Part shown: one piece after another, positions 5,307-64,000 of the stretch
Position numbering within the stretch: the first letter of the stretch is position 1
How the letters are laid out: every line of letters begins with the position of its first letter
Origin: Candidatus Latescibacterota bacterium
Lineage (GTDB): Bacteria > Latescibacterota > UBA2968 > UBA8231
NCBI GenBank assembly: GCA_965248265.1
Contig: CBDFJF010000002.1
Span: 1,344,001 to 1,408,000 of the forward strand
DNA: 64,000 bases
Reading direction: 5' to 3'
Made by a program: the position numbers and the translations under genes
Notes under the pieces: generated by a model
Seen by the model: only the letters and a program-made list of their open reading frames with translations
What the model was told of the DNA's origin: nothing
The model's database searches: none

Positions 5307-6221
5307 ATGTTCAGAGCAAGAGTTACTCTAGTTTTATTGATTCTCATCGGCAGCAGCGAACAGGTGCGGTCCGGAGCATGGGTACAGAGCAAGGGGGCGT
5401 ACTATCTCAAGCTCTCGTCCAGCCACTCGTCCACGACCAGGGAACTCAACTACCGCGGCGTGGGCCTGGACCTGTTCGAGGAGCACCCAGGGTTCGCCGA
5501 CGGCTCTTTCGTCGACTTCAATCTGACCACCTATGTGGAATACGGACTGAGCGACCGCGTCACCCTGGTATCCAACCTGCAGTACAAAGCCCTACGAGCA
5601 TCACGCACCGGGCTCATCGGCGGCGGCGCAGTGCGATACAGAGAAATCCTTCACACCAACGGCCTTGCCGATCTGAGCCTGTCCCTGCGCTATGCCCTGC
5701 TCATCTCTCCTGTGGCTGTTTCCCTGCAGGGCGGTACAAAGATGCCCCTGGGTTACGACAAAACGCCGACGAATGACGGTCCTCCCCTGGGCAGTGGCGA
5801 AGTGGATGGTGAACTCCACGTACTGGCTGGCAAAAGCCTCTACCCCCTGCCGCTCTATCTGTCTGCCGATCTGGGCTACCGCCGCAGGGGCGGGCGGTTG
5901 AACGACGAGATCCTCTACGCGGTCGAGGCGGGGTTAACGGCCGGCCGGTTGCTTTTCAAGGTGGGGCTCGACGGTGTGGAGAACACGAGCACTCCGCCGG
6001 ATATTTACGGTCAGACCGTAGTGACCCCTCTGCCCGGCGGTGGCGGAGTGTTGCCCGATCTCGTCGTCGGCGACCAGCACATCACCAAGCTCAGTCCGGC
6101 TCTCATCTACACCTTGAGGCCGGACCTACTACTGCAGGCGGATGTTTTTCATGTCCTTGCGGGCAAGAACACGCTCAGCGGTACTACGTTCGCTCTGGGT
6201 TTCGTCCTAGTGCGCTCTTAG
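5307..6221 (+). CDS. Putative outer-membrane beta-barrel (MetA-pathway-of-phenol-degradation / 'transporter'-like); alternative start 5277
   Basis: Signal peptide followed by AWVQSKG; YVEYGLSDR, GLADLSLSLRY, KMPLGYD, LGSGEVD amphipathic strands. Confidence 0.6.
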   Translation: MFRARVTLVLLILIGSSEQVRSGAWVQSKGAYYLKLSSSHSSTTRELNYRGVGLDLFEEHPGFADGSFVDFNLTTYVEYGLSDRVTLVSNLQYKALRASRTGLIGGGAVRYREILHTNGLADLSLSLRYALLISPVAVSLQGGTKMPLGYDKTPTNDGPPLGSGEVDGELHVLAGKSLYPLPLYLSADLGYRRRGGRLNDEILYAVEAGLTAGRLLFKVGLDGVENTSTPPDIYGQTVVTPLPGGGGVLPDLVVGDQHITKLSPALIYTLRPDLLLQADVFHVLAGKNTLSGTTFALGFVLVRS

Positions 6222-6270
6222 TCGGCCGGCATCGTGTGGGTGGGTAGCTGACAAGACTGGAGACAATGTC

Positions 6271-6966
6271 ATGAGAGTTGCGATTACAGCCATTCTTTTA
6301 GGGCTCTGGGCCGTGCTTTTGAGTGGTTGCGGCAGCGATGTGGTCTACCAGGTTCCTTCCCCGCCCGCTCCGGACAGCCAGGGACAGGGGGAAGAGGGAG
6401 AGGTTTTTATCACCGACAGGACCGGCAAGGTATGGGACGTGACCCACGCGGCCCGGAATTACGGCATGGGGCCATTCTTGTTCGAGTACGGTCTGGGGCC
6501 TTTTGCCATCCAACCCATAATAAACGCCAGGATGCTGTCCCCCGGCGACCTGAATTACCCGATCGACAGCCAGGGTGCTCTCGTGATCGGGACGAGCCTG
6601 AACGGTTTCACCCGCGCTTACCCCACCGAAATCTTGAGCCGGTTCGAAGTCGCCAACGAACAATTCGGGGACGCGCACGTGGCCGTGGCCTACTGACCGC
6701 TGGTCAACCTGGCTGCCGTGTACAGCCGAGAAATCGACGGACAGATCCTGACCCTGAGCGCCAGCGGATGGACCTATCAATCCACCTTCGTGCTGTACGA
6801 CTACGAGTCCGAAAGCCTGTGGTACCACCTGCCCGGCACGGACGGCCTGACCTGTATCGCCGGCGCCTACGCCGACCGCAAGCTGCCCGAACTCAGCTCC
6901 GTCTTCACCCGCTGGAACCGCTGGAAGGCTGACTTTCCGGATTCAAAGGTTTTCACGTACCCCTAA
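6271..6966 (+). CDS. DUF3179-domain lipoprotein, probable selenoprotein (UGA 6694-6696 read as Sec; 231 aa)
   Basis: ORFs 6271-6696 and 6718-6966 are in the same frame and separated only by TGA. Read-through gives RAYP..IL...EVANE.FG...VAVAY-U-PLVN...YSREIDG...SG......VLYD.ESESLW, where DUF3179 normally has vtyCPLc. Lipobox LLSGC. Confidence 0.85.
6697..6740 (+). promoter_or_regulatory. Candidate bacterial SECIS hairpin
   Basis: GGCTG(6711-15)-CCGTGTA-CAGCC(6723-27) stem-loop with a G-containing loop starting 19 nt after the UGA; possible weak lower stem. Confidence 0.55.
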
Positions 6967-7164
6967 GTGTCCTGTCTCAGAAATATGTCGACATTCTTCC
7001 GCCGATCCATCCCTGCTCGCTGCGTGGGACCGAACTCTTGGAGTTCGGCCTCGTCCCTGAGCGCCTTCACTCGCCGTACTCCACCAGTACGACTCGATCA
7101 GGCGCCTTGAGAGCAGGGCGCCTCGGCGGCCGAATTCAGTCAACCTATTTCTGAGACAGGTCAC
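6967..7164. mobile_element. MITE-like element, 198 bp, IS630-like terminal inverted repeats
   Basis: GTGTCCTGTCTCAGAAATA (6967-85) and TATTTCTGAGACAGGTCAC (7146-64), 18/19 complementary; flanked by CTAA / TAG; nested internal inverted repeats; no coding capacity. Confidence 0.7.
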
Positions 7165-7229
7165 TAGGAGCCGGAGATCCGAGCAAATGGAATACTCGGA
7201 CAGTTTGCTCTTGCGATGAGGACTGAGCC

Positions 7230-8885
7230 ATGAAATGGCCGAATCGGCTGTTGACCTGTATGGTGTTGTCGGCGTTGGGGTTGGCCGACTGTGGCAACGA
7301 AAGCCCCACGCAATCCGGCTCTGACCCCACCGTCCTGGAGGGAGATTTTTCCGTCCGTTCCCAAGAGGACCTGGACCTCCTCGTGGCTCTCGGAAGAGGT
7401 ACGTTCGGGATCTCTGGCGATCTATCGGTAGAGGATTCTCCCTTCATCACCCTGGAGGCCCTCGAGAATCTCACCAGCATCGGCGGGAACCTGTCCATCG
7501 GCAGTCTGGGGGCCGGCAACGCCCGGATGACCAGTCTGGCCGGTCTCGAGAATCTTACCAGCGTCGGCGGATACCTATCCATATTCGGCAATGCAGCTCT
7601 GACCAGCTTGGCAGGGCTTGATGGCGTCACCAGCATCGGCGGGGGTTTGTTCGTCAGGAACACCGTCCTGACCAGCCTGGCAGGGCTGGAGGGTGTCACC
7701 GACGTCGGCGAGTTCATGACCGTCGTCAACAATGATGTACTGACCAGCCTGGCGGGGCTCGACAATCTCACCCGCATCGGCGGGTCCCTGTCCATCGTCA
7801 ACAATGATGTATTGACGAACCTGGCAGGGCTCAACAACCTGACCGGCCTCAGTGGAGAATTGTCCATCCACGACAACCCCTCGCTGACCAGCCTGGCAGG
7901 GCTCGAGAAGATCACGAGCATCGACGAGGTGTTGGACCCAGCATCCGAAAGGGCTCCAGGCGTGTCGATCCTGGGCAATGACGCACTGACCAGTCTCGCG
8001 GGGCTCAACAATCTCGCCCGCATCGGTGGAAACTTGTCCATCGGCACAAATCGTGACGGCAACCCAGTATTGACCAGCCTGGCAGGGCTGGAGAATCTCA
8101 CCGACATCGGCGGGCGTTTGACCATCTCCCGCAACCCCGCGTTGACCAGCCTGGCCGGGCTCGAGAGTCTCACTCGCATCGGTGGATACCTGGGTGTATT
8201 CAACAACGCAGCGCTGACCAGCCTGGCAGGCTTCGAAAGCATCGCCAGCGTCGGTGGAGGCTGGTTTACCGGCAACCCCGCACTGGCGAGCCTGGCAGGG
8301 CTCGAGACGCTCACCAGCGTCGGCGGATTCCTGTCCATCGTCAACAACAACGCACTGGTCAGCGTGGAAGGGCTCGATAATATCACCAGCATCGGCGGGA
8401 GATTGAAGATACAACACAATAGTGCACTGATCAGCCTGGCACCGCTCGGGAATGTCACCCTCGTCGAGGGCGATTTGAATATCAGCGGTAATGAGAAACT
8501 GACCAACCTCGCAGGGTTCGAGAGTGTCACCAGCATCGGCGGAGGTCTGTCCATCTGGTACACCGCCCTGACCAGGCTGACGGGGCTCGAGACGCTCACC
8601 ACCATCGGCGGAGACCTGTCCATCGGCGGCAATGATGAACTGATCAGCCTGGCAGGGCTCGACGATCTCATCAACATCGGCGGGAGTCTATCCATCGGTG
8701 ATCGATTTACCGGCAACACCGTCCTGGCCAGCCTGGCAGGGCTCGAGAGTCTCACCACCATCGGCGGCGACTTGTCCATCCGCGGCAACGGAGCGCTGAC
8801 CGATTCGTCAGCTCAGGTTTTCGCAGATCGATTGGTGGCAAGCGGGTTCACGGGCAGCGTGATCATCAGTGGCAATCAGCAATGA
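7230..8885 (+). CDS. Receptor L-domain / leucine-rich repeat lipoprotein
   Basis: Lipobox-like LGLADC; 18 tandem repeats of consensus LTSLAGLEnLTsIGGxLsIxxNxx. Confidence 0.85.
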   Translation: MKWPNRLLTCMVLSALGLADCGNESPTQSGSDPTVLEGDFSVRSQEDLDLLVALGRGTFGISGDLSVEDSPFITLEALENLTSIGGNLSIGSLGAGNARMTSLAGLENLTSVGGYLSIFGNAALTSLAGLDGVTSIGGGLFVRNTVLTSLAGLEGVTDVGEFMTVVNNDVLTSLAGLDNLTRIGGSLSIVNNDVLTNLAGLNNLTGLSGELSIHDNPSLTSLAGLEKITSIDEVLDPASERAPGVSILGNDALTSLAGLNNLARIGGNLSIGTNRDGNPVLTSLAGLENLTDIGGRLTISRNPALTSLAGLESLTRIGGYLGVFNNAALTSLAGFESIASVGGGWFTGNPALASLAGLETLTSVGGFLSIVNNNALVSVEGLDNITSIGGRLKIQHNSALISLAPLGNVTLVEGDLNISGNEKLTNLAGFESVTSIGGGLSIWYTALTRLTGLETLTTIGGDLSIGGNDELISLAGLDDLINIGGSLSIGDRFTGNTVLASLAGLESLTTIGGDLSIRGNGALTDSSAQVFADRLVASGFTGSVIISGNQQ

Positions 8886-9151
8886 TTGCTTGCCTCACTG
8901 CATCCGCACCCTGACGATGGATAGTGCAGTTTCGCAGGAGGCGCTTGCCAGGGCCTCGGATAGACGGGTAGAGATCGAACGGCGTCGCTTCCCCAAGGTC
9001 TTGTGTACAAACAATCCCAGGTGTACAGTCTCTCCTCCATAGTCCGCGTGATTGTTCGCACTCTAACCTTCGGCGTGAGGTAGTTATCGCTCTTCTTCAA
9101 CGGCTCCCAAATCTTGCCGGTGCTCCGCTGATTCTCGCCCACGCCACTCTG

Positions 9152-11272
9152 GTGGCGTCCGCCACTCTGGTGGTGTCGTGCGAGAAATCCGGAGTCGCTG
9201 GGCACGAGAAGATGGTGGCGCTCCTGTCCAAGGAGGCCAAGAGGACGTCCCTGTTCGACAATAGGGTTGGACAGTTCCAGGCGCCGGCGTTGCGCCGTCA
9301 GGTCGCTGGCATGGCTGGGGCCGAGCCGCGCCTGCGGTGGCCGGTGCTGCGGGGCCTGGCCAGCGAGGAGTCACGGCTCGGGAATCTCGATGCGGCGATC
9401 AAGCACTATGCCGAGGCTCTCGATTTGATCCGCGCCGAAGGCATCGAGAACACGTCGCTCTATCTGAACATCCTCGAGCTCGCGATTGTCTACATGCGCT
9501 GGGGCGAGACCCAGAACTGCGTGGCCATGCATACGAGTGACAGCTGCATCCTTCCGATCAGTGAGAAGGGTGTTTATGTGAACCAGGAAGGCTCGCGCAA
9601 GGCGATCGAGCTCTTAGAGGAGTATCTCGGGAGGTTCCCGGGGGCGCCCGCAGCGCGCTGGCTGCTTAACATCAACTACATGACCGTCGGGGATTACCCT
9701 GAAGGGGTCCCTGCGCCGTTTCTGATTCCGCCCGACACCTTTGCCTCGGATGAGCCCTTTCCACGCTTCACGGACATCGCGCCCGAGCTCGGGTTGAACG
9801 CATTCAGCCTCGCCGGAGGCAGCATCGTCGACGACTTCAATGGCGACGGCTGGCTCGACATCGTGAGCTCGAACTCTGATCCTTCCGGCCAGATGCGCTA
9901 CTTTGAAGGCAACCCCGACAACACGTTCACCGAGCGCACGCAAGAAGCCGGTCTGGTGGGTTTGTTGGGCGGTCTCAACATGAACAACACCGATTACAAC
10001 AACGACGGATTCCTGGACATCCTGGTCCTGCGCGGAGCCTGGCTGGCCCGGGCGGGCACCACACCCAACTCCCTCTTGAGGAACAACGGCGACGGCACTT
10101 TCATCGATGTGACCTTCGACGCCGGTTTGGCCGAGGCCAGCTATCCAACGCAGACGGCGGGGTGGGCCGACTACGACAACGACGGCGACCTGGATCTGTA
10201 CGTGGGCAATGAAAGCGAGCAGGAGTTCACCGCTCCGTGCCAGCTCTTCCGCAACGAGGGCGATGGAACGTTCGTTGACGTGGCCAGAGAAGCGGGCGTG
10301 CTGAACGGGCGCTACGCCAAGGGTGTCATCTGGGGCGATTACGATGGGGACCGTTTCCCCGATCTTTACGTATCCAACATGTTCGGGGAAAACCGGCTCT
10401 ACCACAACAACGGCGACGGGACCTTTACGGACGTCGCCAAGAAGCTGGGCGTCCTCGCACCCCACACAAGCTTCCCGCCCTGGTTCTGGGACTTCGACAA
10501 TGACGGTGCCTTGGACCTTTGGGTCGCGTCCTACATAGAGTCGTTGGATGTATTCGTGGCCAGCTACCTCGGGTTGGAGCACGAGGGTGAGCTGGCATGC
10601 CTCTACCGCGGAGACGGCAAGGGTGGCTTCCGAAATGTTGCCTCGGAGCAGGGCCTCACGTTGCTGACGCTGACGATGGGCTGCAACTTCGGCGATCTGG
10701 ACAACGACGGCTACCTGGACTTCTACCAGGGCACGGGCTACCCGGGGTACGAGGCCCTGATGCCGAACGTGATGTACCGCAACCGCGGCGGGAAGGGCTT
10801 CGTGGACGTGACGATGGCCGGCGGGTTCGGCCACCTGCAGAAGGGCCATGGGGTGGCCTTCGCAGACCTCGACTACGACGGGGATCAGGACGTCTACATG
10901 CAATTCGGGGGCGCCTGGCCCGGCGACAAATACGGCAACGCGTTGTTCGAGAATCCGGGCTTCGACAACCACTGGATCAGGGTGCGGCTCTCGGGCGTAC
11001 AGTCAAATCGACCAGGGATCGGAGCGCGCATCCGCTGCGAGATCCAGGAGGCCGGGAAGCGTCGCTCGGTGTACAGGCACGTGAACAGCGGCGGGAGCTT
11101 CGGGGGCAACCCGCTCATGCAGATGATCGGGCTCGGAACGGCGACGCAGGTGGACGTGCTGGAGGTGTACTGGCCTACGAGTGATCGGTTGCAGACCTTC
11201 CGCGATGTGGCGGTAGACCAGTCGATCCTCATCACGGAGGGCCAGGATACGTTCGAGCGCCTGCCGCGCTGA
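9152..11272 (+). CDS. CRTAC1-family (FG-GAP/VCBS repeats + ASPIC/UnbV) lipoprotein with N-terminal TPR-like segment; start uncertain
   Basis: Repeated DxNxDGxxD motifs; GETQNC, HLQKGHGVAFADLD and GVQSNRPGIGARI...VNSGGSFG ASPIC/UnbV motifs. Confidence 0.9.
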   Translation: MASATLVVSCEKSGVAGHEKMVALLSKEAKRTSLFDNRVGQFQAPALRRQVAGMAGAEPRLRWPVLRGLASEESRLGNLDAAIKHYAEALDLIRAEGIENTSLYLNILELAIVYMRWGETQNCVAMHTSDSCILPISEKGVYVNQEGSRKAIELLEEYLGRFPGAPAARWLLNINYMTVGDYPEGVPAPFLIPPDTFASDEPFPRFTDIAPELGLNAFSLAGGSIVDDFNGDGWLDIVSSNSDPSGQMRYFEGNPDNTFTERTQEAGLVGLLGGLNMNNTDYNNDGFLDILVLRGAWLARAGTTPNSLLRNNGDGTFIDVTFDAGLAEASYPTQTAGWADYDNDGDLDLYVGNESEQEFTAPCQLFRNEGDGTFVDVAREAGVLNGRYAKGVIWGDYDGDRFPDLYVSNMFGENRLYHNNGDGTFTDVAKKLGVLAPHTSFPPWFWDFDNDGALDLWVASYIESLDVFVASYLGLEHEGELACLYRGDGKGGFRNVASEQGLTLLTLTMGCNFGDLDNDGYLDFYQGTGYPGYEALMPNVMYRNRGGKGFVDVTMAGGFGHLQKGHGVAFADLDYDGDQDVYMQFGGAWPGDKYGNALFENPGFDNHWIRVRLSGVQSNRPGIGARIRCEIQEAGKRRSVYRHVNSGGSFGGNPLMQMIGLGTATQVDVLEVYWPTSDRLQTFRDVAVDQSILITEGQDTFERLPR

Positions 11273-11348
11273 GAAGCTGGTTCGATGGCGCACCAGCCGA
11301 CTGCTTCCCTTGCTTGCGTTGGAAGTCTTCGGTTTCGAATATATCGTG

Positions 11349-12743
11349 ATGATGGTATTCTCATCTCCGGTGGTACTGCGTTGGGGAGGACTCTGCTGGC
11401 TCCTGGCGTACTATGGTTGCGGACCTCAGCCAACACTTCCGGAGCTCACGATTCCTGAGAGTCTCGATGCTGAGATCCGTTCCCTGGTAGATGATCGTCT
11501 CGAAAGGGTACGCGAAGACCCATCGAATGCGGAGCGGTTGGGGCAGCTCGGCCTGGTTTTCGAGGCAAACGTGCTCTGGCAACAGGCCCGCCAGTGTTTC
11601 GAGGCGGCGGTGTTACTGGCCCCGCGGGAACCCGTCTGGGCTTACCATGCCGCCCGCGCCACGCAGCATCTGGGCGATTTCGACGGCGCCGTAGCGGCCA
11701 TGCATGCGGTGGTGAAGAGCTTTCCAATCTTTGCTCCCGCCCAGCACCATCTCGGGGACCTGCTGCTCGAGTTTGGCGACGTCGAGGGGGCGGACGCAGC
11801 GTTCCGGCGTGCCGTAAAATTGCACGGGAAGTCCCCAGAAGGGCACGTCGGTATCGGCCGTGTCGCTCTCGAGCGTCGTGATTATCCTGGTGCCGTCACC
11901 GCTCTAGAGCGGGCTCTCTCGCTCCAACCGGGCCACAAAATGGCGGCATTTCTCGTGGGGCGCGCCTACCGGCGCCTCGGTCGCACCGAGGATGCGGATC
12001 GCGCCCAGGCTCAAGGTGAGGATGCCGAGAAGTCCTACATACTCGACCGCACGAGCAGGGACCTGGCGCGCTACTCCCGCGGCTACAGCACGCGGCTCGA
12101 TCACGCGGTGGGATTCATCCGCGCCGGCAAACCCGCAGACGCCATCGTCGTCCTGGAGAGGATGTATCAGGAGCGGCCGCGGGACTTGATGGTCATGAAC
12201 AACCTCGCGGTGGCGTATCGCCGGGTGAACCGCGCTCGAGAGGCCCTCGCCATCCTCGATGCGAGCATTGAGGTTCACCCTGACGCGTTCGGGACATACA
12301 TCAACAAGGCGGATTGCCTCGCCTCGCTCAAGCTGTATCCGCAGGCACTCGCGGCCGCGAACGCCGCCATCGAAAGGGGTCCACAGATCGCGCAAGCTCA
12401 CTTCGAGCGCGGCAAGGCGCTTCTATTCATGGGAGAGTTCGCCCCGGCGCGTGTGTCTCTGGAGACCGCCATCGGTCTCGACAACCGGCGGCCTGCTTTC
12501 CATCAGGCTCTTGCGCAGGTGTGCCTCCACCTCGAGGACCGCACCGGGGCGCGAGCGGTGCTGGAAGAGCTTCTCCGGCTCACTCCACAAAGCATCAGCC
12601 ACCTCGTCAACCTCGGCGTCGTCTGCGTGGATCTCGAGGACTGGCCCGCCGCGATGCGAGCCCTCGAGGCCGCTCGCAAACTCAACCCGAACCACCCAGC
12701 CGTGAAGCAATTCGAGCAATACTACGAGCAGCGCAAACCGTGA
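11349..12743 (+). CDS. Tetratricopeptide-repeat lipoprotein
   Basis: Lipobox-like YYGC; continuous TPR repeats (A...LG......G....A...F.RA..L.P). Start chosen among several candidates (11310-11352). Confidence 0.85.
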   Translation: MMVFSSPVVLRWGGLCWLLAYYGCGPQPTLPELTIPESLDAEIRSLVDDRLERVREDPSNAERLGQLGLVFEANVLWQQARQCFEAAVLLAPREPVWAYHAARATQHLGDFDGAVAAMHAVVKSFPIFAPAQHHLGDLLLEFGDVEGADAAFRRAVKLHGKSPEGHVGIGRVALERRDYPGAVTALERALSLQPGHKMAAFLVGRAYRRLGRTEDADRAQAQGEDAEKSYILDRTSRDLARYSRGYSTRLDHAVGFIRAGKPADAIVVLERMYQERPRDLMVMNNLAVAYRRVNRAREALAILDASIEVHPDAFGTYINKADCLASLKLYPQALAAANAAIERGPQIAQAHFERGKALLFMGEFAPARVSLETAIGLDNRRPAFHQALAQVCLHLEDRTGARAVLEELLRLTPQSISHLVNLGVVCVDLEDWPAAMRALEAARKLNPNHPAVKQFEQYYEQRKP

Positions 12744-14416
12744 TGCGCGCGCGGAGATCGTCCGTCGCGGCAGCGCTGTTGGTCGTGAGTCTCGGCTGCG
12801 AGCGAACGCCGACCACCACGAACAGGAACGCGACTGCCGAGTCCGGCGGATCCCCGTGGTTCGAGGACCGAACCGCGGGCTCGGGCATCGACTTCCTGCA
12901 CACGTCAGGCAAGCAGAAGCGATTCTGGTATCCGGAGATCGTCGCCAGCGGCGTTCTCCTCCTCGACTACGACGGAGACAGGCTCCTCGACGTCTATCTG
13001 GTTCAGGGTGGTGAGATCGCCGCCGGAGGAGATTCACCGGGGAATCGTCTGTACCGGAACCTCGGGGATTTTCGCTTCCAGGATGCGACGGAGAGCGCCG
13101 GCGTCGGCGACAGGGGCTATGGCATAGGCGGCACCGTTGCGGACTACGACGGCGATGGAGACACCGACTTCTACGTCACGAATCTGGGGGCGAACGTCCT
13201 CTACCGCAACGAAGGCAACGGCCAGTTCACGGACGTCACCACCGACGCCGGAGTCGGCGATGCGGACTGGAGCGCGAGCAGCGTCTTCTTCGACGCCGAC
13301 CGTGACGGAGATCTGGATCTCTATGTAGTAGACTATCTGCGCTGGTCGATCGCTGCCGACGTCGAGTGTTTCTCCGCATCCGGGCGGCGCGTCTACTGCA
13401 ATCCGAACAACTTCCAAGCGCCGCTGCCGGATGTACTCTACCGCAACGACGGCGACGGGCGCTTCACCGACATCAGCGCCGAGGCTGGCATCCACCAGGC
13501 GCGGGGTAACGGACTCGGAGTCGTGGCCGGGGATTTTGGTGGCGACGATCGCATCGATCTCTACGTCGCCAACGACGGCATGGCCAACCAGCTGTGGATC
13601 AACCAGGGCGGTTTGAAGTTCGTCGACGAGGGACTCTCCTCGGGGACGGCTTTCAACGCCGTCGGCGAGGCGGAGGCCGGTATGGGTGTCGCCGCCACGG
13701 ATGTCGACCACGATGGGGATCTCGACCTGTTCGTCTCGCACCTGAGGGAAGAAACGAACACGTTTTATGTCCGTGAGCAAGGCGGTTTCTTCGAGGATAT
13801 CACGAATCGCACCGGGCTCGGCTCAACGAGCTATGAGTTCACCGGTTTCGGGCTCGGCATCATCGACTTCGACCACGATGGCCTCCTCGACATCTACCTG
13901 GCGAACGGCCGCGTCGGCTACTGGGAACCGATCAACGACCCGGAGGACATCTACGCGGAGTCGAATCAGCTCTTCCGCGGCGTCGATGTGCTGAGATTCG
14001 AGGAAGTCGCGCCTCGGGGAGGTACCGCGAGGCCGATCGTCGAGACGAGCCGTGCCGCCGCCTTCGGAGACCTCGACAACGACGGCGCCGTCGACGTCGT
14101 CGTCAACAACCTCGATGCGAAGGTCACGGTTTTACGCAACACGGTCGGTTCACGGGGACATTGGGTGCAGTTCGCCGTCCGCGGCCGTGATGGGCGATAT
14201 GACCTGCACGCCCGGGTGCGTATCGACGCCGGGGGGGTGTCGCGCTGGCGGCGGGTGGAGCGGGCTTACAGCTACTGTGGAAGCAACGACCCTCGCGTCC
14301 ACTGCGGGTTGGGAGCCGCGGCGGTCGTGGACATGGTCACCGTGTACTGGACGGACGGCGCGACGAGTGAATTCGGACCCTTCGAAGTCGATCAAACTCA
14401 TGTCCTCCAACGCTAG
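12743..14416 (+). CDS. CRTAC1-family (FG-GAP + ASPIC/UnbV) lipoprotein
   Basis: ATG overlaps the TPR stop (TGATG); lipobox VSLGC; DYDGD repeats, AGMGV, SRAAAFGDLDNDG, SYCGSNDPRVHCGLG. Confidence 0.9.
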   Translation: MRARRSSVAAALLVVSLGCERTPTTTNRNATAESGGSPWFEDRTAGSGIDFLHTSGKQKRFWYPEIVASGVLLLDYDGDRLLDVYLVQGGEIAAGGDSPGNRLYRNLGDFRFQDATESAGVGDRGYGIGGTVADYDGDGDTDFYVTNLGANVLYRNEGNGQFTDVTTDAGVGDADWSASSVFFDADRDGDLDLYVVDYLRWSIAADVECFSASGRRVYCNPNNFQAPLPDVLYRNDGDGRFTDISAEAGIHQARGNGLGVVAGDFGGDDRIDLYVANDGMANQLWINQGGLKFVDEGLSSGTAFNAVGEAEAGMGVAATDVDHDGDLDLFVSHLREETNTFYVREQGGFFEDITNRTGLGSTSYEFTGFGLGIIDFDHDGLLDIYLANGRVGYWEPINDPEDIYAESNQLFRGVDVLRFEEVAPRGGTARPIVETSRAAAFGDLDNDGAVDVVVNNLDAKVTVLRNTVGSRGHWVQFAVRGRDGRYDLHARVRIDAGGVSRWRRVERAYSYCGSNDPRVHCGLGAAAVVDMVTVYWTDGATSEFGPFEVDQTHVLQR

Positions 14417-14576
14417 GAGCCCGTTGATAAACCCCATTTGGCCTGAGGCCGGCCCTTTCGTCCGATCTCTGCGTTGTGCTCACTCGCCGCATCCCACTGA
14501 TGCGACTCGATCGCACGCCTTGATATCGGCCAAAATTGCTCGGCCTCAGCTCCAAAGCGGGTTTATCAACGGGCTC
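14417..14576. mobile_element. MITE-like element, 160 bp, at a CTAG site (IS5/IS1182-like ends)
   Basis: Perfect 18-bp inverted repeats GAGCCCGTTGATAAACCC / GGGTTTATCAACGGGCTC, extended imperfectly to about 35 bp; flanks CTAG (contains the upstream gene's stop) and CTGG. Confidence 0.75.
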
Positions 14577-14639
14577 CTGGTATCCTGTCCGGCGGTGGTA
14601 GACCATCATGGTGACCGTCAGTCAATGAAGGGCTGATTT

Positions 14640-17516
14640 ATGACCTTTGATCTGCGCTCACTCATTTTTTTGATCCCGGTTTACGTTGCTTTTTTCGCAT
14701 CCGGCGCGAGTAGTCTGATCGCTGAGGTTACATGGAATCGGATGCTGATCACGGTCGTCGGTAACTCGATGAGTGCAACGGCCATGATTTTGGTTGCGTT
14801 CATGGGAGGACTTGGACTCGGAAGCCACATCGGGGGGAAATTCTTCAGCGGACGCAGCGCTTCGCTCGTTCCGTATATCTTGCTGGAGATTGCCATCGGC
14901 GCCTATGTATTTTTCTCGCCCGCGCTGTTCGATCTGCTGGCGTATCTCTTCACCCTACTGGCTGAGAATGTTGACGATCGAGCCAACCTGACCATCGCGC
15001 GCATCGCTGTCAGCCTTGCGGCGCTGCTACTTCCCGCCTTTCTGATGGGCGCGACGTTTCCAGCTATCATCTCGGCGGTAGCGCCGGATTCGTCGTCACA
15101 GCGAACAGCACGCACAGGCTATTTGTACAGCACCAACACCTTGGGTGCCGCCGTGGGTTGCTTCGTGGCTGGATACTTCCTGTTGGGCGAGTTTGGTGTT
15201 CAGACCACCTTGGCCTGCGCCCTCGGCCTTTATTTCGTTGCGGTGGTGTGTGCGTTCGCGGCCAGAGCAGCTACAAGGCGCAAACCCAGTGACGTCCCCG
15301 CCGCCGCGCCGATCTCCGGTGGTACCGGCCCGTTCGTAGACATTAGTTCGAAGCGTTTTCTAAACATCGCGACCTTCGGAATGGGATTCGTCGCGCTTGC
15401 CTACCAAGTGCTCCTGACGAGGCTGGGCATTCTGTACCTGGGTAACAGTGCACCGGTATTTCCGGTCGTGCTGACTGGTTTTCTCTTGGGAACAGGTATC
15501 AGTGCCATGCTGGGGACATGGCTCTACGGACTGTTGCGCCGCACCACGCAAAGAAGCAACAGCCTCTTTGGCCTCACTGCGCTTGGTGCTGGAGTGTTTG
15601 TCCTCTTGACCCCGTATCTTCTGTTGACGCTCAGCACAGACCAGTCTGCCCAGTTCGCTGCATTCAGTTTTGCAAACCTGGTACCTATTCTGGCGATCAT
15701 CGTCGCTCCCACGATTCTTATCGGTGCTCTGCTGCCGGTTGCGATCAGAATGCTCCAACCGGAGGGGCGTGGCCAGGCAACACGAGAAGCCGCCACACTC
15801 TATGCGCTCAATACGGCTGGAGGCCTGCTGGGTGCCGGCCTGGTAAATCATTACCTGGTCCCGCTCATCGGAGTCCAGGGCATCCTCATCAGTATAGCTT
15901 CGATATGTGCTGCAGTGGGCATCTGCAATCTGCGCTCTCCAGGTAAAAGTTTTCGCCGTTGGTCTGCCACCACTCTAAGTGTTGTCGCGTTAGCGGTTGC
16001 TCTCGCACTAACCCTGCCAAGGATCATAGATCTGTACGCAGCGAGACTCGCGGCATCCAAGAAAGCGCTTTCGACGGAGGTCCGCCTGATTCAGGAGGGA
16101 CGCGCCGCAACGGTCAGCGTCATTGACCAAGTGGATCCCAGGAAGGGCACATACCGCGACATGTACCTGAACGGTGTTGAGGAAGCTTCAACCCGTTATT
16201 GGCACACCCAACTGTTCAAGCTATTGGGAAGTTTTCCGGTGCTGGCCCACGAGGCGGAGGAACCCAAAGAGGTGCTGGTGATCGCCTTTGGGGCCGGTAT
16301 CACGGCGGGCTCGGTACTGGCCTCTGATGAGGTCTCCAACCTCGATGTCGTCGACCTCAATCCCGATGTGGAAGGCATCAACGACCTGTTTACGGATGTG
16401 AACGGGGATGTGTTTCACAAGCCGAGATTCCGTTTTCACAATGACGACGGCCGCAACTACCTGGTGACCAGCAACAAGCGGTATGACGTGATTATCAGCG
16501 ATTCGACCCATCCGCGCGCCTACGATAGCTGGGTTCTCTACACGGAGGAATTCTACCAGGCCGTCAAAGAACGTCTTCTTTCCGGTGGTATATTTGCGCA
16601 GTGGGTGCCGGTGCTCGGTGACATGCAGGGAGACCTGTTCACGATACATCTGAATACGTTCCGACGGGTGTTCCCCAACTCCACGTTCTGGTATGTCTAC
16701 GGCTCCGACCAGGCGTTTCTCCTGGCTACCCCCGAACCCTTCATGTTCGACGTTGAACGCCTGCAAAAGCAACTGGACCAGTTGCCCGAATGGTTTCGTG
16801 CGGAAGAATACCAGATCGACACGGTCACCCGCATCGCCGGTTTCTTCTGGATGGATGAGGCGGCCATGGCGACGATGATCGGTCGCGAGACGAGGGTCAA
16901 CACCGACGATCTTCACTACTTCGATAAGCAATCCGCATTGGTGCCGGCACCGGCGCAATTGCGGCTTCCACGATTCCAGACCGCGGCTCTTCCCTATCTC
17001 GACCAAGCAGATCATACGCTTGCCGTTGCCATCCGCGAAGAGCAGCAAGTGGCTCAACTGGTGGCCAGGTATGGGTTCTACCGAACCGAGGAAGATCTGT
17101 TCAGAGCCTACTGCATCATGCCTAACAATGGCAATGTGCGATATTTCTTGTCTCGAGGACTCCCCGACGGCAAGCTGCCGGACAACGAGACCTTCTGTGA
17201 GGGATTACAGATAAGGAATTATCTAGCAGCCATCGCGAGGCAACCTGATGATGTTCGCGCCATGACCGATCTGGCGCGTCTTCACGCAGGTAAGGGCAGG
17301 TATGCTGAGGCAGAACCGCTTCTCAGGCAGGCGTTGGCAATAAGGGAGAAGGCCCTCGGGCCAGAGCACCCCGAGGTGGCGCAATCCTTGACCGATCTGG
17401 CACACCTGTATGAATCCCAGGGCAGGCATTCCGAGGCTGAACCACTTTTCAAGCGATCCCAGGAAATATTGAAGAAAATCTTTGGGCGAAGCATCCCCGC
17501 GTTGCGGAAACCATGA
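14640..17516 (+). CDS. Fused MFS-like membrane domain / spermidine-synthase-like methyltransferase with C-terminal TPR
   Basis: SGASSLIAEVTW.R, FMGGLGLGS, LY..NT.G (twice); VLVIAFGAGIT, DDGRNYL, YDVIISD, LYTEEFY; ALAIREKALGPEHPEVAQSL TPR. Confidence 0.9.
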   Translation: MTFDLRSLIFLIPVYVAFFASGASSLIAEVTWNRMLITVVGNSMSATAMILVAFMGGLGLGSHIGGKFFSGRSASLVPYILLEIAIGAYVFFSPALFDLLAYLFTLLAENVDDRANLTIARIAVSLAALLLPAFLMGATFPAIISAVAPDSSSQRTARTGYLYSTNTLGAAVGCFVAGYFLLGEFGVQTTLACALGLYFVAVVCAFAARAATRRKPSDVPAAAPISGGTGPFVDISSKRFLNIATFGMGFVALAYQVLLTRLGILYLGNSAPVFPVVLTGFLLGTGISAMLGTWLYGLLRRTTQRSNSLFGLTALGAGVFVLLTPYLLLTLSTDQSAQFAAFSFANLVPILAIIVAPTILIGALLPVAIRMLQPEGRGQATREAATLYALNTAGGLLGAGLVNHYLVPLIGVQGILISIASICAAVGICNLRSPGKSFRRWSATTLSVVALAVALALTLPRIIDLYAARLAASKKALSTEVRLIQEGRAATVSVIDQVDPRKGTYRDMYLNGVEEASTRYWHTQLFKLLGSFPVLAHEAEEPKEVLVIAFGAGITAGSVLASDEVSNLDVVDLNPDVEGINDLFTDVNGDVFHKPRFRFHNDDGRNYLVTSNKRYDVIISDSTHPRAYDSWVLYTEEFYQAVKERLLSGGIFAQWVPVLGDMQGDLFTIHLNTFRRVFPNSTFWYVYGSDQAFLLATPEPFMFDVERLQKQLDQLPEWFRAEEYQIDTVTRIAGFFWMDEAAMATMIGRETRVNTDDLHYFDKQSALVPAPAQLRLPRFQTAALPYLDQADHTLAVAIREEQQVAQLVARYGFYRTEEDLFRAYCIMPNNGNVRYFLSRGLPDGKLPDNETFCEGLQIRNYLAAIARQPDDVRAMTDLARLHAGKGRYAEAEPLLRQALAIREKALGPEHPEVAQSLTDLAHLYESQGRHSEAEPLFKRSQEILKKIFGRSIPALRKP

Positions 17517-61009: not shown

Positions 61010-62812
61010 CATCAGTGCCAGCAGAAGGACCCCAAAGGCTGTGGTACGACAGACCCGCCGATGGCTGGCTCGAGGCCCTGCCGGTCGGCAACGGCCGTCT
61101 CGGTGCGATGGTCTTCGGGGGGGTCCCCGCCGAGCGCATGCAACTCAACGAAGACACCCTGTGGACCGGTGTGCCCGGAGGCTGGAACGAACCGCGGTCG
61201 AAGGATCTCATCCCGATGATCCGTCGTCTCGTCGACGACGAACGCTATGCAGAAGCGACCGAGCTGTGCAAGCAACTGCAGGGTCCGTTCAATCAGGCGT
61301 ACCAACCCGTCGGTGATCTCTTTGTCGAATGCGACCACGACGGCGATCTATCCGATTACTGCCGCGAGCTTGATCTGGCTACCGGCGTTGCGTCGACCGT
61401 CTACCGTGCCGGCGGACGCACCTGGCACCGTGAGGCCTTCGCCAGCTATCCCGACCAGGTTATCGTCATGCGGCTGGAATGCGACCGCCCCGGCATGGTC
61501 GGGTGCTCCCTCAGCATGTCGAGTCCTCTCAGACATCAGGTGGAATACACGCCATCCGGCAGCATCCGGCTTGTCGGGCGTTGTCCCCGTCAGGTGATCG
61601 CCCGCGGCTGGGACACCGTTTTCGTCTACGACGAGGATCAGACGGAAGACATGCGGTTCACGAGTTTGAATAAGCGCCAGCCGCTCGAGGAGCCGGTAGG
61701 TTGTATGCGGTTCGAGGCCCGTATCATGATATGCGCCGAAGGGGGCCGTGTGGCCATGTCCGATGATCGCCTCACGGTGTCGGATGCCGATGCCCTCACT
61801 CTGCTTGTTGCCGCGGACACGAGCTACAACGGACATCGAGCCCATCCCGGCAGGGAAGGCGTGGATCCATCTGAGGAGGTCGAAGCCGTGCTCGCTGCGG
61901 TAGGGGATGTGCCGTACGAACGCCTGCGCGAACGGCATACGGCTGATCATGACGAGCTGTTCGGCCGGGTGACCGTCGATCTGGGAGCGGCATCGACCTG
62001 CGACCTGCCTACCGATGAACGGATCAGCGCATTCGGCCAATCACCAGACCCGTCGCTGGTCTCTCTCCTGTTTCAATACGGTCGGTACCTGACGATCGCC
62101 GGTTCGCGTCCCGGCTCGCAGCCTTTGAACCTTCAGGGTATCTGGAACGATCAGATCGATCCCCCCTGGTGGAGCAACTGGACTATCAATATCAACACCG
62201 AGATGAATTACTGGCCGGCAGAGGTGACGAATTTGTCTGAGTGCCACACGCCTCTGTTCGATTTCATCGACGGGCTTGCCGACAACGGCGCTGAGACGGC
62301 ACAGATCAACTACGGGCTCGATGGCTGGGTCGCTCACCACCAGGTCGATCTCTGGCGCCAGAGTGCACCGGTGGGCTGCTTTTTCGGGAATTCCAACTAC
62401 GCCATGTGGCCGCTGGGCGGTGCTTGGCTCAGCCGTCATTTCTGGGAACATTTCCTGTTTACCGGTGATCGCGATTTTCTGCGTGACCGCGCCTGGCCTC
62501 CCATGAAGGGCGCTGCCGAGTTTTGCCTGGGCTGGCTGATAGAGGACGATAGCGGTTTCCTGGTGACCTCGCCGTCGACCTCGCCCGAGCACGTGTTCAG
62601 GCTTCCGGATGGCACCAGGGCTTCGGTGAGCAAGGCCTCTACCATGGACATGGCCATCATCCACGACCTGCTTGGCCATTGTATCGACACCGCCGCCATT
62701 CTCGGAATCGATGCCGAATTCGCCGAACGCTGCGCCTCGGCACGCTCACGTCTGTTCCCTCCGCCGATCGGTGAGGACGGTTCCCTGCTAGTGCTCTGTT
62801 AAGAAATCGAGC

Positions 62813-62841
62813 TTGTACTTTGTCGTAAGTCGTGGTATCAT
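62813..62841 (+). promoter_or_regulatory. Sigma70-type promoter of the IS630 transposase
   Basis: TTGTAC-17 nt-TATCAT with an extended -10 TG; AGGAGG RBS at 62864. Confidence 0.55.
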
Positions 62842-62877
62842 GGATACATATGGTGAATCCGTCAGGAGGGTGATGCT

Positions 62878-63938
62878 ATGTGTCTCCATGCTCGTTCGCC
62901 GAACGCGGCGGAGTCTAAGGAACTGGGACGGTGGCTGAAACGGCCTCGCAACGCCGTGCAGATGCGCCGTGGGCAGTTGATCTCGTTCAGCGCCCAGGGC
63001 ATGCGCGTCCAGGAGATCTCGGATACACTGCATCTGCATGAGGAGTACGTTCGCCAGTTGATCCGCCAGTACAACGAAGGGGGATTGACGGTTTTGCGCA
63101 CTCGGGCACGTCCGGGGCGTCCTTCGAAGTTGACGCCGGAGGACGAATCCGTGGTGGTGGAAATTGCCACGATGCCCCCCCGTGCATTCGGCCAGCCGTT
63201 CAACCAGTGGTCGTTGCGCAAGCTGACCGACTGCCTGGTGGGACGGCAGATGATTCCCGAGGTTTCGCATGTGACCATCGGAAAAATCCTGGATCAACAT
63301 AAGGTTACCTATCAACGGACGCGCACCTGGAAAGAATCAAAGGACCCGGAGTTTGTCTCTAAAAAAAACGCATCAACCGACTCTACAAGCGGGCGCCGAA
63401 AGACACGGTCGTAGTCTGTTTCGACGAACTGGGACCAGTCCAGATCAAGCCGCATGCCGGTGCTTCCTGGGCCCCACACAAGCGCCCGGTCCGGCATCGG
63501 GCAACCTATAGCCGCCACGGCGGCGTCAGCTATTTCTTTGGAGCCTATAACGTCCATGAGGACATCCTGTGGATGCATCACAAACCCAAGAAACATGCGT
63601 CGGTCGTACTCGATTTCCTCAAGGCCATTCGGCTCCGCTATCGCACGGCGGAGCGGATCTATGTCGTCATGGATAATCTGTCGACGCACAAGACACCGCC
63701 GATCCTGCAGTGGTGCCGACGAAACCGGGTCTCGCCGGTCTTCACCGCCACCAACGCGTCATGGATGAATCGGCTCGAATGTCACCTCACCGCAGCCCAT
63801 TATTTCGTCATTAAAAACAGCGATCCCAACGATCATCGAGAAGTCGGCCAGCGCATGCAGGAGTACCTGAGGTGGCGAAACAAGAACACGGACAACGCCA
63901 AGCTGGCCAAAGTCCAAAACTCAATGCCCACTCTTTAA
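62878..63938 (+). CDS. IS630 transposase (programmed -1 frameshift at the A8 run 63361-63368)
   Basis: OrfA HTH with RPGRP and WSLRKL; the -1 frame carries VCFDE, VMDNLSTHK, SWMNRLE (DDE). Confidence 0.92.
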
Positions 63939-64000
63939 CAGAGCACTAGAATGGTTCCGTGATTTCACTCCCCAGGATCCCGAGCATCGCCACCTGTCGC

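Follow-up and report, generated by a model that had tools for sequence, protein, structure and literature searches.

The window, i.e., the whole stretch of 64,000 nucleotides that was analysed, contains on its forward strand two MITE copies and, much further downstream, an IS630-family insertion sequence. The first copy, E1 (6967..7164, + strand, 198 bp), belongs to subfamily A and carries a 37-nt hairpin insert (7026..7062, +) that parts the conserved 5' junction motif CTGCGT (7020..7025, +) from the remaining core (7063..7109, +). This core consists of a helix P2 (7063-7066 paired with 7100-7103), two TCNNTC loops (7067-7072 and 7094-7099), an apical helix P3 (7073-7080 paired with 7086-7093, loop 7081-7085) and the conserved 3' junction GCCTTG (7104-7109), all on the + strand. 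The second copy, E2 (14416..14577, +, 162 bp), belongs to subfamily C, and its core (14469..14522, +) comprises CTGCGT (14469-14474), P2 (14476-14479 paired with 14513-14516), the loops (14480-14485 and 14507-14512), P3 (14486-14493 paired with 14499-14506, loop 14494-14498) and GCCTTG (14517-14522), again on the + strand. A stop codon adjoins each element, as the sequence-only reading had noted: E1 lies between TAA (6964-6966), the stop of the upstream ORF, and TA (7165-7166), while the TA to the left of E2 (14414-14415) forms with the first G of the element the TAG stop (14414-14416) of an ORF of 700 aa (12314-14416), the right flank being TG, a decayed TA. The insertion sequence (62791..63946, +, 1156 bp) encodes a DDE_3 domain, is one of 17 copies in the genome, is flanked by cTA on the left and TAg on the right, and has an end repeat that starts GTGCTCTGTTAAGAAA.

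The core of the two MITEs had been singled out from the letters as a common structured motif, and this part of the reading holds. The segments 7067-7110 and 14480-14523 are as quoted and agree at 34 of 44 positions in an ungapped alignment; six of the differences amount to three compensated base-pair changes in the apical stem, the change from AGG to GCA is balanced by CCT versus TGC in the 4-bp helix P2, and CTGCGT stands 5' of both cores. The long rods were likewise confirmed, with fold energies of -105.7 and -95.9 kcal/mol (z -9.3 and -10.9) that 0 of 200 shuffles equalled. On the other hand, the ends of the two elements are not unrelated, as had been claimed. E1 and E2 align collinearly over their whole length, their end repeats follow the common pattern xxxxCCyGTy, and both have TA flanks, mostly with cTA before a first G and TAg behind a last C. 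The shells are thus homologous throughout, the proposed capture of the core by unrelated transposon shells is not supported, and the labels "IS630-like" and "CTAG-targeting" denote one and the same thing here.

Full-length copies number 33 in the genome; they measure 160-216 bp, in most cases 162-164 or 198-199 bp, and fall into about six subfamilies with end repeats of at least 19 nt in each. Among 32 copies, TA flanks the left end in 24, the right end in 23 and both ends in 18, and it is extended to CTA on the left in 17 and to TAG on the right in 17; copies whose outer bases depart from CTAG fit a 2-bp TA duplication. As G is the first and C the last base of the MITEs, a TAG stop codon is restored after insertion, and the frequent position behind stop codons follows from the CTAG/TA target. 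All ten genome matches to the 37-nt insert lie inside MITE copies, of subfamilies A, B and X, so that some module exchange between subfamilies does occur. Copies that are 98-99% identical are present at different loci, an indirect hint that a transposase may mobilise them in trans; neither an empty site nor a moving copy was seen. In addition, a hand count gave about eight "mini" copies, internally deleted with both ends retained, from which it follows that deletions across the rod happen in this genome. The IS630-family copies are flanked by cTA and TAg in 17/17 cases, and by hand count 13 of 19 positions of their end agree with that of subfamily B; in one relative, the end of its IS630 element agrees with the end of its own MITE at 14 of 19. 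No insertion sequence that shares its ends with subfamilies C and D was found in the genome. An IS630-family insertion sequence is the likely kind of helper for these MITEs, and both window elements very probably belong to one superfamily of non-autonomous, TA-duplicating, CTAG-preferring MITEs of the IS630/Tc1-mariner type.

The plan of the core is that of two covarying helices, P2 (4 bp) and P3 (8 bp), set between near-invariant unpaired motifs: GCGTTG on the 5' side, TCNNTC on each side of P3 and CGCCTTG on the 3' side. In 25 copies of this genome, 90.7% of the cells are paired, versus 74.2% in shuffled sets and 27-41% with slid partners. The number of copies and this degree of pairing lie far above what chance would give. 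Across phyla, 99 rows gave 81.2% versus 53.9% in shuffles, part of the invariance in this set being imposed by the search pattern, and the 35 rows unforced by any pattern gave 89.6% versus 64.1%, with two-sided changes in 21 of 22 pairs. Consistent with constraint, none of 270 cells deviates within subfamilies at GGCGCCTTG, compared with 2-9% in other regions and 0.5% in the 37-nt insert. Covariation in three row sets, together with this fixity, bears out the claim of a conserved structured motif under selection.

The core reaches well beyond this genome. It is present in 29 of 61 related genomes, and a 22-letter pattern returned at least 120 matches in named genomes of several phyla, where about one would be expected by chance on our own estimate. 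The flanks were read at 26 loci among the 80 matches listed and are mostly those of palindromes bordered by TA or CTAG, three having no readable ends. Records with the core are labelled Latescibacterota, Gemmatimonadota, Actinomycetota, Bacillota, Myxococcota and Pseudomonadota, and TA-flanked elements carrying it occur in at least five phyla besides that of the window. Between phyla the arms are almost wholly replaced, being AT-rich in Bacillota and GC-rich in Actinomycetota; the junction motifs, by contrast, are retained. One relative has 39 cores and no DDE_3 transposase gene.

Rfam gave a chance miRNA match alone (E 8.2) in positions 6000-15500 of the window and no match at the element in eight loci from other phyla. 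Nevertheless, the statement that the motif is not a named family has to be corrected, as the core belongs to the ERIC (MITEEc1) type. A covariance model built without ERIC (R2) had only two hits in the chromosome of E. coli K-12, both of them ERIC (E 0.12 and 0.18), and with filters off it found ERIC in place at six of six ERIC loci (E 3.8e-5 to 0.83); a model limited to Latescibacterota (R1) did not find ERIC in K-12, its single hit (E 6.9) being a REP. Because the core has the same arrangement as the ERIC centre, the family is part of an ERIC-like superfamily with members in several phyla. The best reading of the two elements is that of ERIC-superfamily, IS630-type MITEs whose strand-asymmetric core would act on single-stranded DNA.

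The two strands of the element fold unequally. With RNA parameters, the complementary, purine-rich strand is predicted to be more stable than the quoted one in 93 of 93 elements, by 18 kcal/mol on average, and G-U pairs number 504 on the complementary strand versus 290 on the quoted one; with DNA parameters the same strand is favoured in 33/33, by a mean of 9 kcal/mol. The copies are also oriented with respect to replication. Of the 33 copies, 31 have the quoted strand on the G-rich strand (p 1.3e-7), fragments show the same orientation in 11 of 12 cases, and dnaA is located at the skew switch. As controls, IS630 genes show no bias (9/17) and crude gene calls fall on the leading strand in 52%. 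Subfamilies C and D, whose near-identical copies are young, already show the bias (11/12). Orientation thus follows replication and not the neighbouring genes, as the crude gene calls that read into the elements do so in sense in 14 cases and in antisense in 11. The bias is, however, uneven and not general across relatives. With replichores assigned from 20 samples of 20 kb each, a relative with 39 copies has 29 of them co-oriented (p 0.003), a relative with equal strand asymmetry has 68/130 by the nearest skew sample or 78/130 after smoothing, and a third has 40/82, five of its elements differing between strands by 0.7-5.9 kcal/mol, with weaker folding and weaker asymmetry.

A mechanism that would connect both observations can be proposed on the basis of the sequence and of modelled folding energies. 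Seen on the complementary strand, the TCNNTC loops become GANNGA opposite GANNGA and may form tandem G.A pairs, so that this purine-rich strand would zip up as a nearly uninterrupted rod, whereas open pyrimidine bubbles would persist on the quoted one. The core would in this way render hairpin formation in single-stranded DNA strand-asymmetric. Copies whose strongly folding strand serves as the lagging-strand template would be lost through hairpin-stimulated deletion or breakage, and among the survivors the strand that folds weakly would be found on the G-rich, leading-sequence strand, which is what is observed. We regard such a strand-asymmetric hairpin mechanism as a serious possibility whose chances fall somewhat short of even, whereas identity and mechanism taken together as the best overall explanation are, by a small balance, probably correct. 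The loss model is incomplete, in that alone it leaves the retention of the exact GCGTTG and CGCCTTG across phyla unexplained, and the co-oriented young C and D copies fit an insertion bias as well as they fit rapid loss.

This last point leads to the view that insertion itself is coupled to the fork and strand-specific, with a transposase or host factor recognizing the core on single-stranded DNA and allowing one orientation of entry. The co-orientation of 31/33 copies, and of the young ones in particular, would be expected from it, the unpaired motifs between covarying helices resemble a recognition surface, and the strand with the open loops is, on our reading, the lagging-strand template. 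Yet the near-perfect inverted repeats and TA flanks are those of double-strand cut-and-paste IS630 elements, the IS630 copies themselves are unbiased (9/17), no Y1/HUH transposase was found in this 92%-complete genome, and the bias is slight or absent in two relatives rich in copies, all of which make fork-coupled insertion unlikely, albeit not negligibly so. The suggestion that the core is a substrate of a HUH/RAYT nuclease finds no support on related grounds, since no Y1_Tnp match was obtained in this 92%-complete genome and the elements have TA flanks and terminal inverted repeats.

It has also been considered that the core works at the RNA level, as a structured module that serves 3'-UTR processing or stability or binds a protein, and is selected through co-transcription with the upstream gene, as reported for ERIC in Yersinia. 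ERIC RNA hairpins alter mRNA decay in an orientation-dependent manner through an RNase E site, according to the portions of the literature available to us (PMC2229807, PMC10969869, PMC3184786), and the covariation, the conserved loops and the many copies immediately behind stop codons would all suit this role. But gene orientation is 14:11 where replication orientation is 31/33, the CTAG/TA target accounts for the position behind stop codons, a T-run behind the rod is absent in both window elements, and the strand that folds better is the opposite of the one on which the sequence-only reading had built its proposal. A sense-oriented 3'-UTR function, as that reading envisaged, is not borne out, and an RNA role in general appears distinctly improbable.

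A further view takes the core as a double-stranded DNA site for a transposase or host protein, i.e., a transposition enhancer or a polar complex in which the GCSTTG pair and the TCNNTC pair are direct-repeat sites. The direct-repeat layout of the near-invariant motifs, the fixity of GGCGCCTTG within subfamilies (0/270) and the conservation across phyla, where an IS630-type transposase is the only nameable common partner, speak for such a site. Covarying helices and an excess of G-U pairs on one strand, however, indicate folding of single strands; moreover, the relative with 39 cores lacks any DDE_3 gene, and mini copies without a core persist. We therefore give duplex recognition little credence.

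Just as little can be given to the idea that subfamilies C and D, with ends CTAGGAGCC, are MITEs of the IS1182/IS5 type that duplicate a 4-bp CTAG, the family then spanning two transposase types. MITEs with 4-bp repeats and IS1182-like ends have been reported, at least in the part of the source available to us (PMC11578231), and where CTAG stands on both flanks the TA and CTAG models are indistinguishable by sequence. Against this, copies flanked by TTA before the first G and TAT behind the last C, or by ATA and TAG, fit a 2-bp TA duplication and misfit a 4-bp repeat; three informative C and D copies speak for TA and zero for CTAG. Nor was a DDE_Tnp_1_6 transposase or an autonomous element with C/D ends found in this 92%-complete genome; DDE_Tnp_1_6 matches occur in 14 of 61 relatives, none of them among the copy-rich ones (G002, G008, G020 and G032). 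Finally, that the core itself is functionless, being the slowest-changing remnant of a common ancestor with orientation as a by-product, would agree with the homology of all copies and with the genomes that lack a bias, but it is very improbable in view of arms replaced between phyla around retained junction motifs, helices varying through compensated pairs, 0/270 deviations at GGCGCCTTG against 2-9% elsewhere (the 37-nt insert aside) and identical strand asymmetry in 93/93 elements.

Returning to the preferred reading of an ERIC-type core acting on single-stranded DNA, its most far-reaching form is that the ERIC centre is an ancient, cross-phylum module of IS630-type MITEs, whose non-Watson-Crick purine "zipper" folds one strand, leaves the other open and links the fate or insertion of copies to fork direction. 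We advance this only tentatively and hold it to be rather doubtful. If true, it would provide the first general mechanism for ERIC-like repeats and mark out a group of cut-and-paste MITEs that take their orientation from replication, and the ERIC centre would be no enterobacterial oddity.

Among known systems, ERIC or IRU elements (MITEEc1, MITEYpe1 and MITEPlu5 in ISfinder) are the closest, being TA-flanked, rod-folding, intergenic MITEs like those described here. Their centre has the same order of GCGTTG, a TC-rich strand, a central hairpin, a second TC-rich strand and CGCCTT(G/C). On the other hand, ERIC is about 127 bp long with a much longer central inverted repeat, whereas the present elements have 162-198 bp and an 8-bp apical stem, and the arms have no sequence in common. 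The ERICs of E. coli K-12, unlike the copies of this genome, show no replication bias (7:5, relative to oriC and ter). The reviews, in the parts available to us, place ERIC in enterobacterial and vibrio hosts (PMC10969869, PMC3184786), while the present elements probably reside in Latescibacterota and other phyla. That the ends of ERIC-type MITEs resemble those of the IS630 type has been published before (PMC6267812). RUP of Streptococcus pneumoniae (IS630-Spn1) and Nezha of cyanobacteria are likewise small and non-coding, with TA duplication and with terminal inverted repeats that resemble those of an IS630-family element resident in the genome, but the available part of their description mentions no cross-phylum covarying centre or replication-linked orientation (PMC2229807).

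The Correia elements (NEMIS) of Neisseria are TA-flanked MITEs too, of about 100-155 bp and with no known transposase. Their sequence may carry the same two junction motifs. A different kind of likeness is found in IS200/IS605, for which Ton-Hoang et al. (2010) reportedly described orientation coupled to replication and imperfect hairpins in one DNA strand. In both respects these elements, their derivatives and REP/RAYT resemble the present family. IS200/IS605-type elements have no terminal inverted repeats, produce no target duplication and need a Y1/HUH transposase. The elements described here, by contrast with them and with REP/RAYT, have inverted repeats and TA flanks and reside in a 92%-complete genome in which no Y1 transposase was found. 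Lastly, in engineered and disease-associated repeats the unequal folding of the two strands leads to lower stability in one fork orientation, as proposed here, with the difference that in the ERIC-type core the asymmetry would be conserved and built into a natural mobile element.

The two elements of the window, E1 (6967-7164, 198 bp, adjoining the TAA at 6964-6966) and E2 (14416-14577, 162 bp, placed at the TAG 14414-14416 that ends a 700-aa ORF at 12314-14416), are copies of one ERIC-like IS630-type MITE, a real and well-supported feature of this DNA. Both 44-nt cores quoted in the sequence-only reading are present and match without gaps at 34/44 positions; their differences are, as claimed there, compensated pairs that lie in the apical stem and in a 4-bp helix just outside it, and CTGCGT stands upstream of the core in both elements. 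The long rods are likewise upheld, with folding energies of -105.7 kcal/mol (z -9.3) for E1 and -95.9 kcal/mol (z -10.9) for E2, far stabler than shuffled sequences. The core matched no Rfam family, either at the window's elements or at eight loci of other phyla. Readings dropped after inspection of the sequences by eye were an intrinsic terminator, a sigma-70 promoter, a K-turn, an integron attC site, a peptide-coding frame and a KOPS/Chi-like signal. Metagenome contigs from four DNA runs placed on 6000-15500 break at the elements, and among the joints listed none skips an element, so that no empty site was seen; for 6700-7400, no RNA data set was listed. In the same region, the summed metagenome-contig depth rises 10- to 200-fold at about 10100-10450 and 13000-14250, with many joints between both places, a sign of a repeated, conserved coding motif within the large ORFs found there.

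Searches with blastn and nhmmer against the window's own genome (7.32 Mb, 2 contigs, 59.6% G+C) recovered 33 full-length copies together with some 20 fragments or "mini" copies with internal deletions; the covariance model (CM) gave 34 matches, namely the 33 copies and one degenerate element. Subfamily A, to which E1 belongs, comprises 11 copies (seven with a 37-nt insert), B comprises 8 (two with the insert), C, which includes E2, has 5, C' and X have 1 each and D has 7; copies lacking the insert measure 162-164 bp and those carrying it 198-199 bp. The cores had been thought to sit in unrelated shells, one with IS630-like and the other with CTAG-targeting ends. All copies are alignable end to end, and the two descriptions cover one and the same behavior: the end repeats vary by subfamily, and since all carry the pattern xxxxCCyGTy, the ends of the subfamilies are diverged relatives. 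TA flanks the element on the left in 24/32 copies, on the right in 23/32 and on both sides in 18/32, mostly in the form cTA/G...C/TAg (slashes at the element limits). The elements have G as their first and C as their last base, so that a TAG stop is restored when an element inserts into it. The TAG at 14414-14416 consists of the target TA and the first G of E2, and in 14/33 copies the end of a crude ORF call falls 2-3 nt within the element limits. The targeting of CTAG and the rebuilding of the stop place MITEs exactly on stop codons, which explains a recurring annotation puzzle.

Between subfamilies A, B and X the 37-nt insert (7026-7062 in E1) keeps 97-100% identity, and 10/10 of its matches in the genome fall inside MITEs. 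Three different small hairpin insertions of the form CGAAC...GTTCG occur at three places in MITEs (7026-7062 and the copies at C2:525848 and C1:2725091 on the two contigs of this genome), which suggests that copies exchange modules or that a very small mobile hairpin nests in them. Composite elements, with an A-like element nested inside a C-like one and two opposed cores about 127 nt apart, were observed at L243 1400-1800, a locus of the related genome G057, and also at the loci L142 and L151; one genome holds ten opposed-core pairs, the nested element is flanked by TTG, not TA, and the composite has apparently spread as a whole.

The likely helper for the MITEs is an IS630-family insertion sequence of 1156 bp with a DDE_3 domain, present in this genome in 17 near-identical copies, one of them at 62791-63946. 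All 17 are flanked cTA/.../TAg; their end repeat agrees with that of subfamily B at 13/19 positions (hand count), and in one relative an IS630-type end agrees with the MITE end of the same genome at 14/19. The transposase at 62791-63946 occupies two frames, which join at a stretch of eight A, an arrangement suggestive of programmed frameshifting. A minor alternative takes the CTAGGAG-ended MITEs to be IS1182-type, with a 4-bp duplication, but the flanks of three informative C/D copies are compatible only with a 2-bp TA duplication, and no such copy is compatible only with the 4-bp one. Neither a DDE_Tnp_1_6 (IS1182-type) nor a Y1/HUH transposase was found in the genome, which is 92% complete. 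Of 61 genomes, 31 have DDE_3 matches and 14 have DDE_Tnp_1_6 matches; DDE_Tnp_1_6 is missing from several genomes rich in copies, and a genome with 39 cores has neither.

Read from the outside in, the core consists of the rod P1, a junction with (C)nGCGTT on the 5' side and GCCTTG on the 3' side, the 4-bp helix P2, a 6-by-6 internal loop with TCNNTC on each side, the 8-bp helix P3 and a loop that is usually CCACY. The earlier claim that this core is conserved and covarying was right, as its pairing exceeds that of shuffles in three alignments; these were fitted to the structure and their rows are related, so that independent lineages are much fewer than rows. In 25 rows from the window's genome, 90.7% of positions pair vs 74.2% after shuffling (27-41% when slid), and 15/22 pairs have changed on both sides; the corresponding values are 81.2% vs 53.9% (22-45%; 20/22 pairs) in 99 CM-fitted cross-phylum rows and 89.6% vs 64.1% (31-44%; 21/22) in 35 rows from 28 related genomes and one viral contig. 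The rows of the last set were chosen without any pattern, and all five measures lie above 500/500 shuffles; its columns that are at least 90% identical read C.GCGTTGC..TC..TC and TC..GCGCCTTG. Within the subfamilies of the window's genome, 0/270 cells deviate in GGCGCCTTG, other regions reaching 2-9% and the 37-nt insert 0.5%. On the whole-element alignment, a misalignment of subfamily D made RNAalifold miss the apical stem; the invariant GCGU/RCGC helix that it proposed excludes P2, is untestable by covariation and was rejected.

The core model matches in 29/61 related genomes, with up to 132 copies in a single genome, and by family the carriers number 24/36 (f1), 0/18 (f2), 1/3 (f3) and 3/3 (f4). 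A 22-letter pattern of conserved positions gave at least 120 matches in named genomes, the chance estimate being about one in the collection. Labels among the matches listed include Latescibacterota, Gemmatimonadota, Actinomycetota (e.g., Nocardioides, Actinoallomurus), Bacillota (Lachnospiraceae and others), Myxococcota and Pseudomonadota, as well as the record Sarcina sp. DSM 11001; the best-scoring outside matches are records labelled Candidatus Latescibacterota, so that the window's genome probably falls in this phylum. In 26 loci read with their flanks (of 80 listed), the match lies mostly in the middle of a TA/CTAG-flanked palindrome, three loci having no readable ends. The arms are group-specific, being AT-rich in Bacillota and GC-rich in Actinomycetota, and MITEs with TA flanks in several phyla have the same central module between almost wholly different arms. 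Phages are not an obvious carrier, since viral contigs gave a single match to the core pattern (L265 1545-1617, IMG/VR), low in GC and resembling the Lachnospiraceae elements. On a Roseburia-labelled contig, a TwoAYGGAY RNA (RF01731, 110.8 bits; L122 4695-4858, minus strand) lies 1.2 kb from an ERIC-like MITE and is unrelated to the core.

On the strand complementary to the quoted one, the TCNNTC loops read GANNGA opposite GANNGA, from which we infer tandem G.A pairs around two ordinary pairs; the loops are conserved and do not covary, which would be because tandem G.A pairs need G and A. The same kind of mismatch takes the place of P2 in Actinomycetota and Bacillota variants. With RNA parameters the complementary strand is stabler by a mean of 18 kcal/mol in 93/93 elements (33 from the window's genome and 60 of the 77 cross-phylum rows, those with enough flank), comparisons that are not independent because the common core contributes to each; with DNA parameters it is stabler in 33/33, by a mean of 9 kcal/mol. 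G-U pairs number 504 on the complementary strand vs 290 on the quoted strand, the excess sitting in the arms.

Orientation of the copies in the window's genome is linked to replication. The quoted strand lies on the G-rich strand in 31/33 copies (GC skew within +-100 kb; binomial p 1.3e-7) and in 28/33 when the same scoring uses +-10 kb, and the skew curve has two replichores with a switch at dnaA (C1:2,963,508). Among the controls, IS630 transposase genes have no bias (9/17), crude gene calls lie on the leading strand in 52% of cases, and genes reading into elements divide into 14 sense and 11 antisense, so that the proposed gene-sense orientation does not stand. As control genes are unbiased and copies follow the skew, the "sense" orientation of E1 and E2 reflects the replichore, not the genes. 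One of the two discordant copies (C1:485013) lies in a positive GC-skew island at C1 ~0.30-0.55 Mb within a negative-skew replichore, which may be an inversion or acquired DNA.

The same scoring was applied to three relatives, with 20 skew samples of 20 kb per genome; co-orientation was found in 29/39 copies of G008 (p 0.003), in 68/130 of G002 by the nearest sample (p 0.66) or 78/130 after smoothing (p 0.03), and in 40/82 of G057 (p 0.91). Two genomes have a strong orientation bias, a third a weak one and a fourth none; in at least two, the copies follow replication, not genes, in their orientation. The elements of G057 fold more weakly and less asymmetrically; in five elements of this type from other loci, the two strands are 0.7-5.9 kcal/mol apart. 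Across 8-kb loci from other phyla, windows too short to weigh, the oriented GC skew is positive in 15/20 low-GC loci (p 0.04) and in 32/58 high-GC loci (not significant). In a complete Actinoallomurus genome 11/15 copies fit only if the origin is assumed at position 0, and E. coli K-12 ERICs divide 7:5 relative to assumed oriC and ter positions.

Asymmetric palindromes are known to be lost in an orientation-dependent manner. In the surviving copies the weakly folding strand would be the lagging-strand template, and in copies of opposite orientation a near-perfect hairpin would form on that template and lead to loss. Deletions across the rod do happen in this genome, as is shown by mini copies of 55-100 bp (about eight by hand count) that have lost the core and kept both ends, as at C2:3198362-3198459, C2:701744-701817, C2:636410-636481, C2:2957526-2957603, C1:1098342-1098419 and others; in the single case examined in detail, the deletion endpoints lie at short direct repeats close to the base of the rod. 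An enrichment of mini copies in the "wrong" orientation, sought as a test of loss, was not seen, fragments and mini copies being concordant in 11/12 cases (5/5 with strict thresholds). Loss also leaves unexplained the invariant junction motifs and the little bias of one strongly asymmetric population. A first rival is fork-coupled insertion, by which the bias would arise at insertion; a second is a function as RNA, such as has been reported for Yersinia ERICs, and a third a protein site in the duplex.

ERIC repeats have served as a strain typing tool for over thirty years. If the range, the strand asymmetry and the replication-linked orientation described here hold, what the ERIC core is for becomes a testable question on hairpins at replication forks, and cultured carriers exist, with records named Nocardioides, Actinoallomurus and Sarcina sp. 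DSM 11001. Both the cross-phylum core and the replication-linked orientation look new: in the literature searched (few subscription journals, no supplements), no report was found of an ERIC-like core outside Gammaproteobacteria or of MITE orientation following replication. In published reviews, ERIC is a MITE with TA flanks that occurs in Enterobacteriaceae and Vibrionaceae (PMC10969869, PMC3184786, PMC2229807). The resemblance of ERIC-type ends to IS630-type ends is already in print (PMC6267812), and the same paper is the source for about 550 ERIC-type copies reported in Photorhabdus. The core, for which no known relative had been recognised, is ERIC-type. A Latescibacterota-only model (R1) found no ERIC in E. 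coli K-12, its single match (E 6.9) being a REP; only the broader R2, built on 77 cross-phylum rows with no ERIC included, reaches ERIC. On the K-12 chromosome R2 gave only two matches (E 0.12 and 0.18), both of them ERICs, the first lying between ahpC and ahpF, the other downstream of rplA; with filters off, it placed the ERIC correctly in 6/6 loci (E 3.8e-5 to 0.83). Located with the ERIC2 primer and read on the other strand, the K-12 ERICs have the order GCGTTG, a TC-rich strand, a long central inverted repeat, a second TC-rich strand and CGCCTT(G/C).
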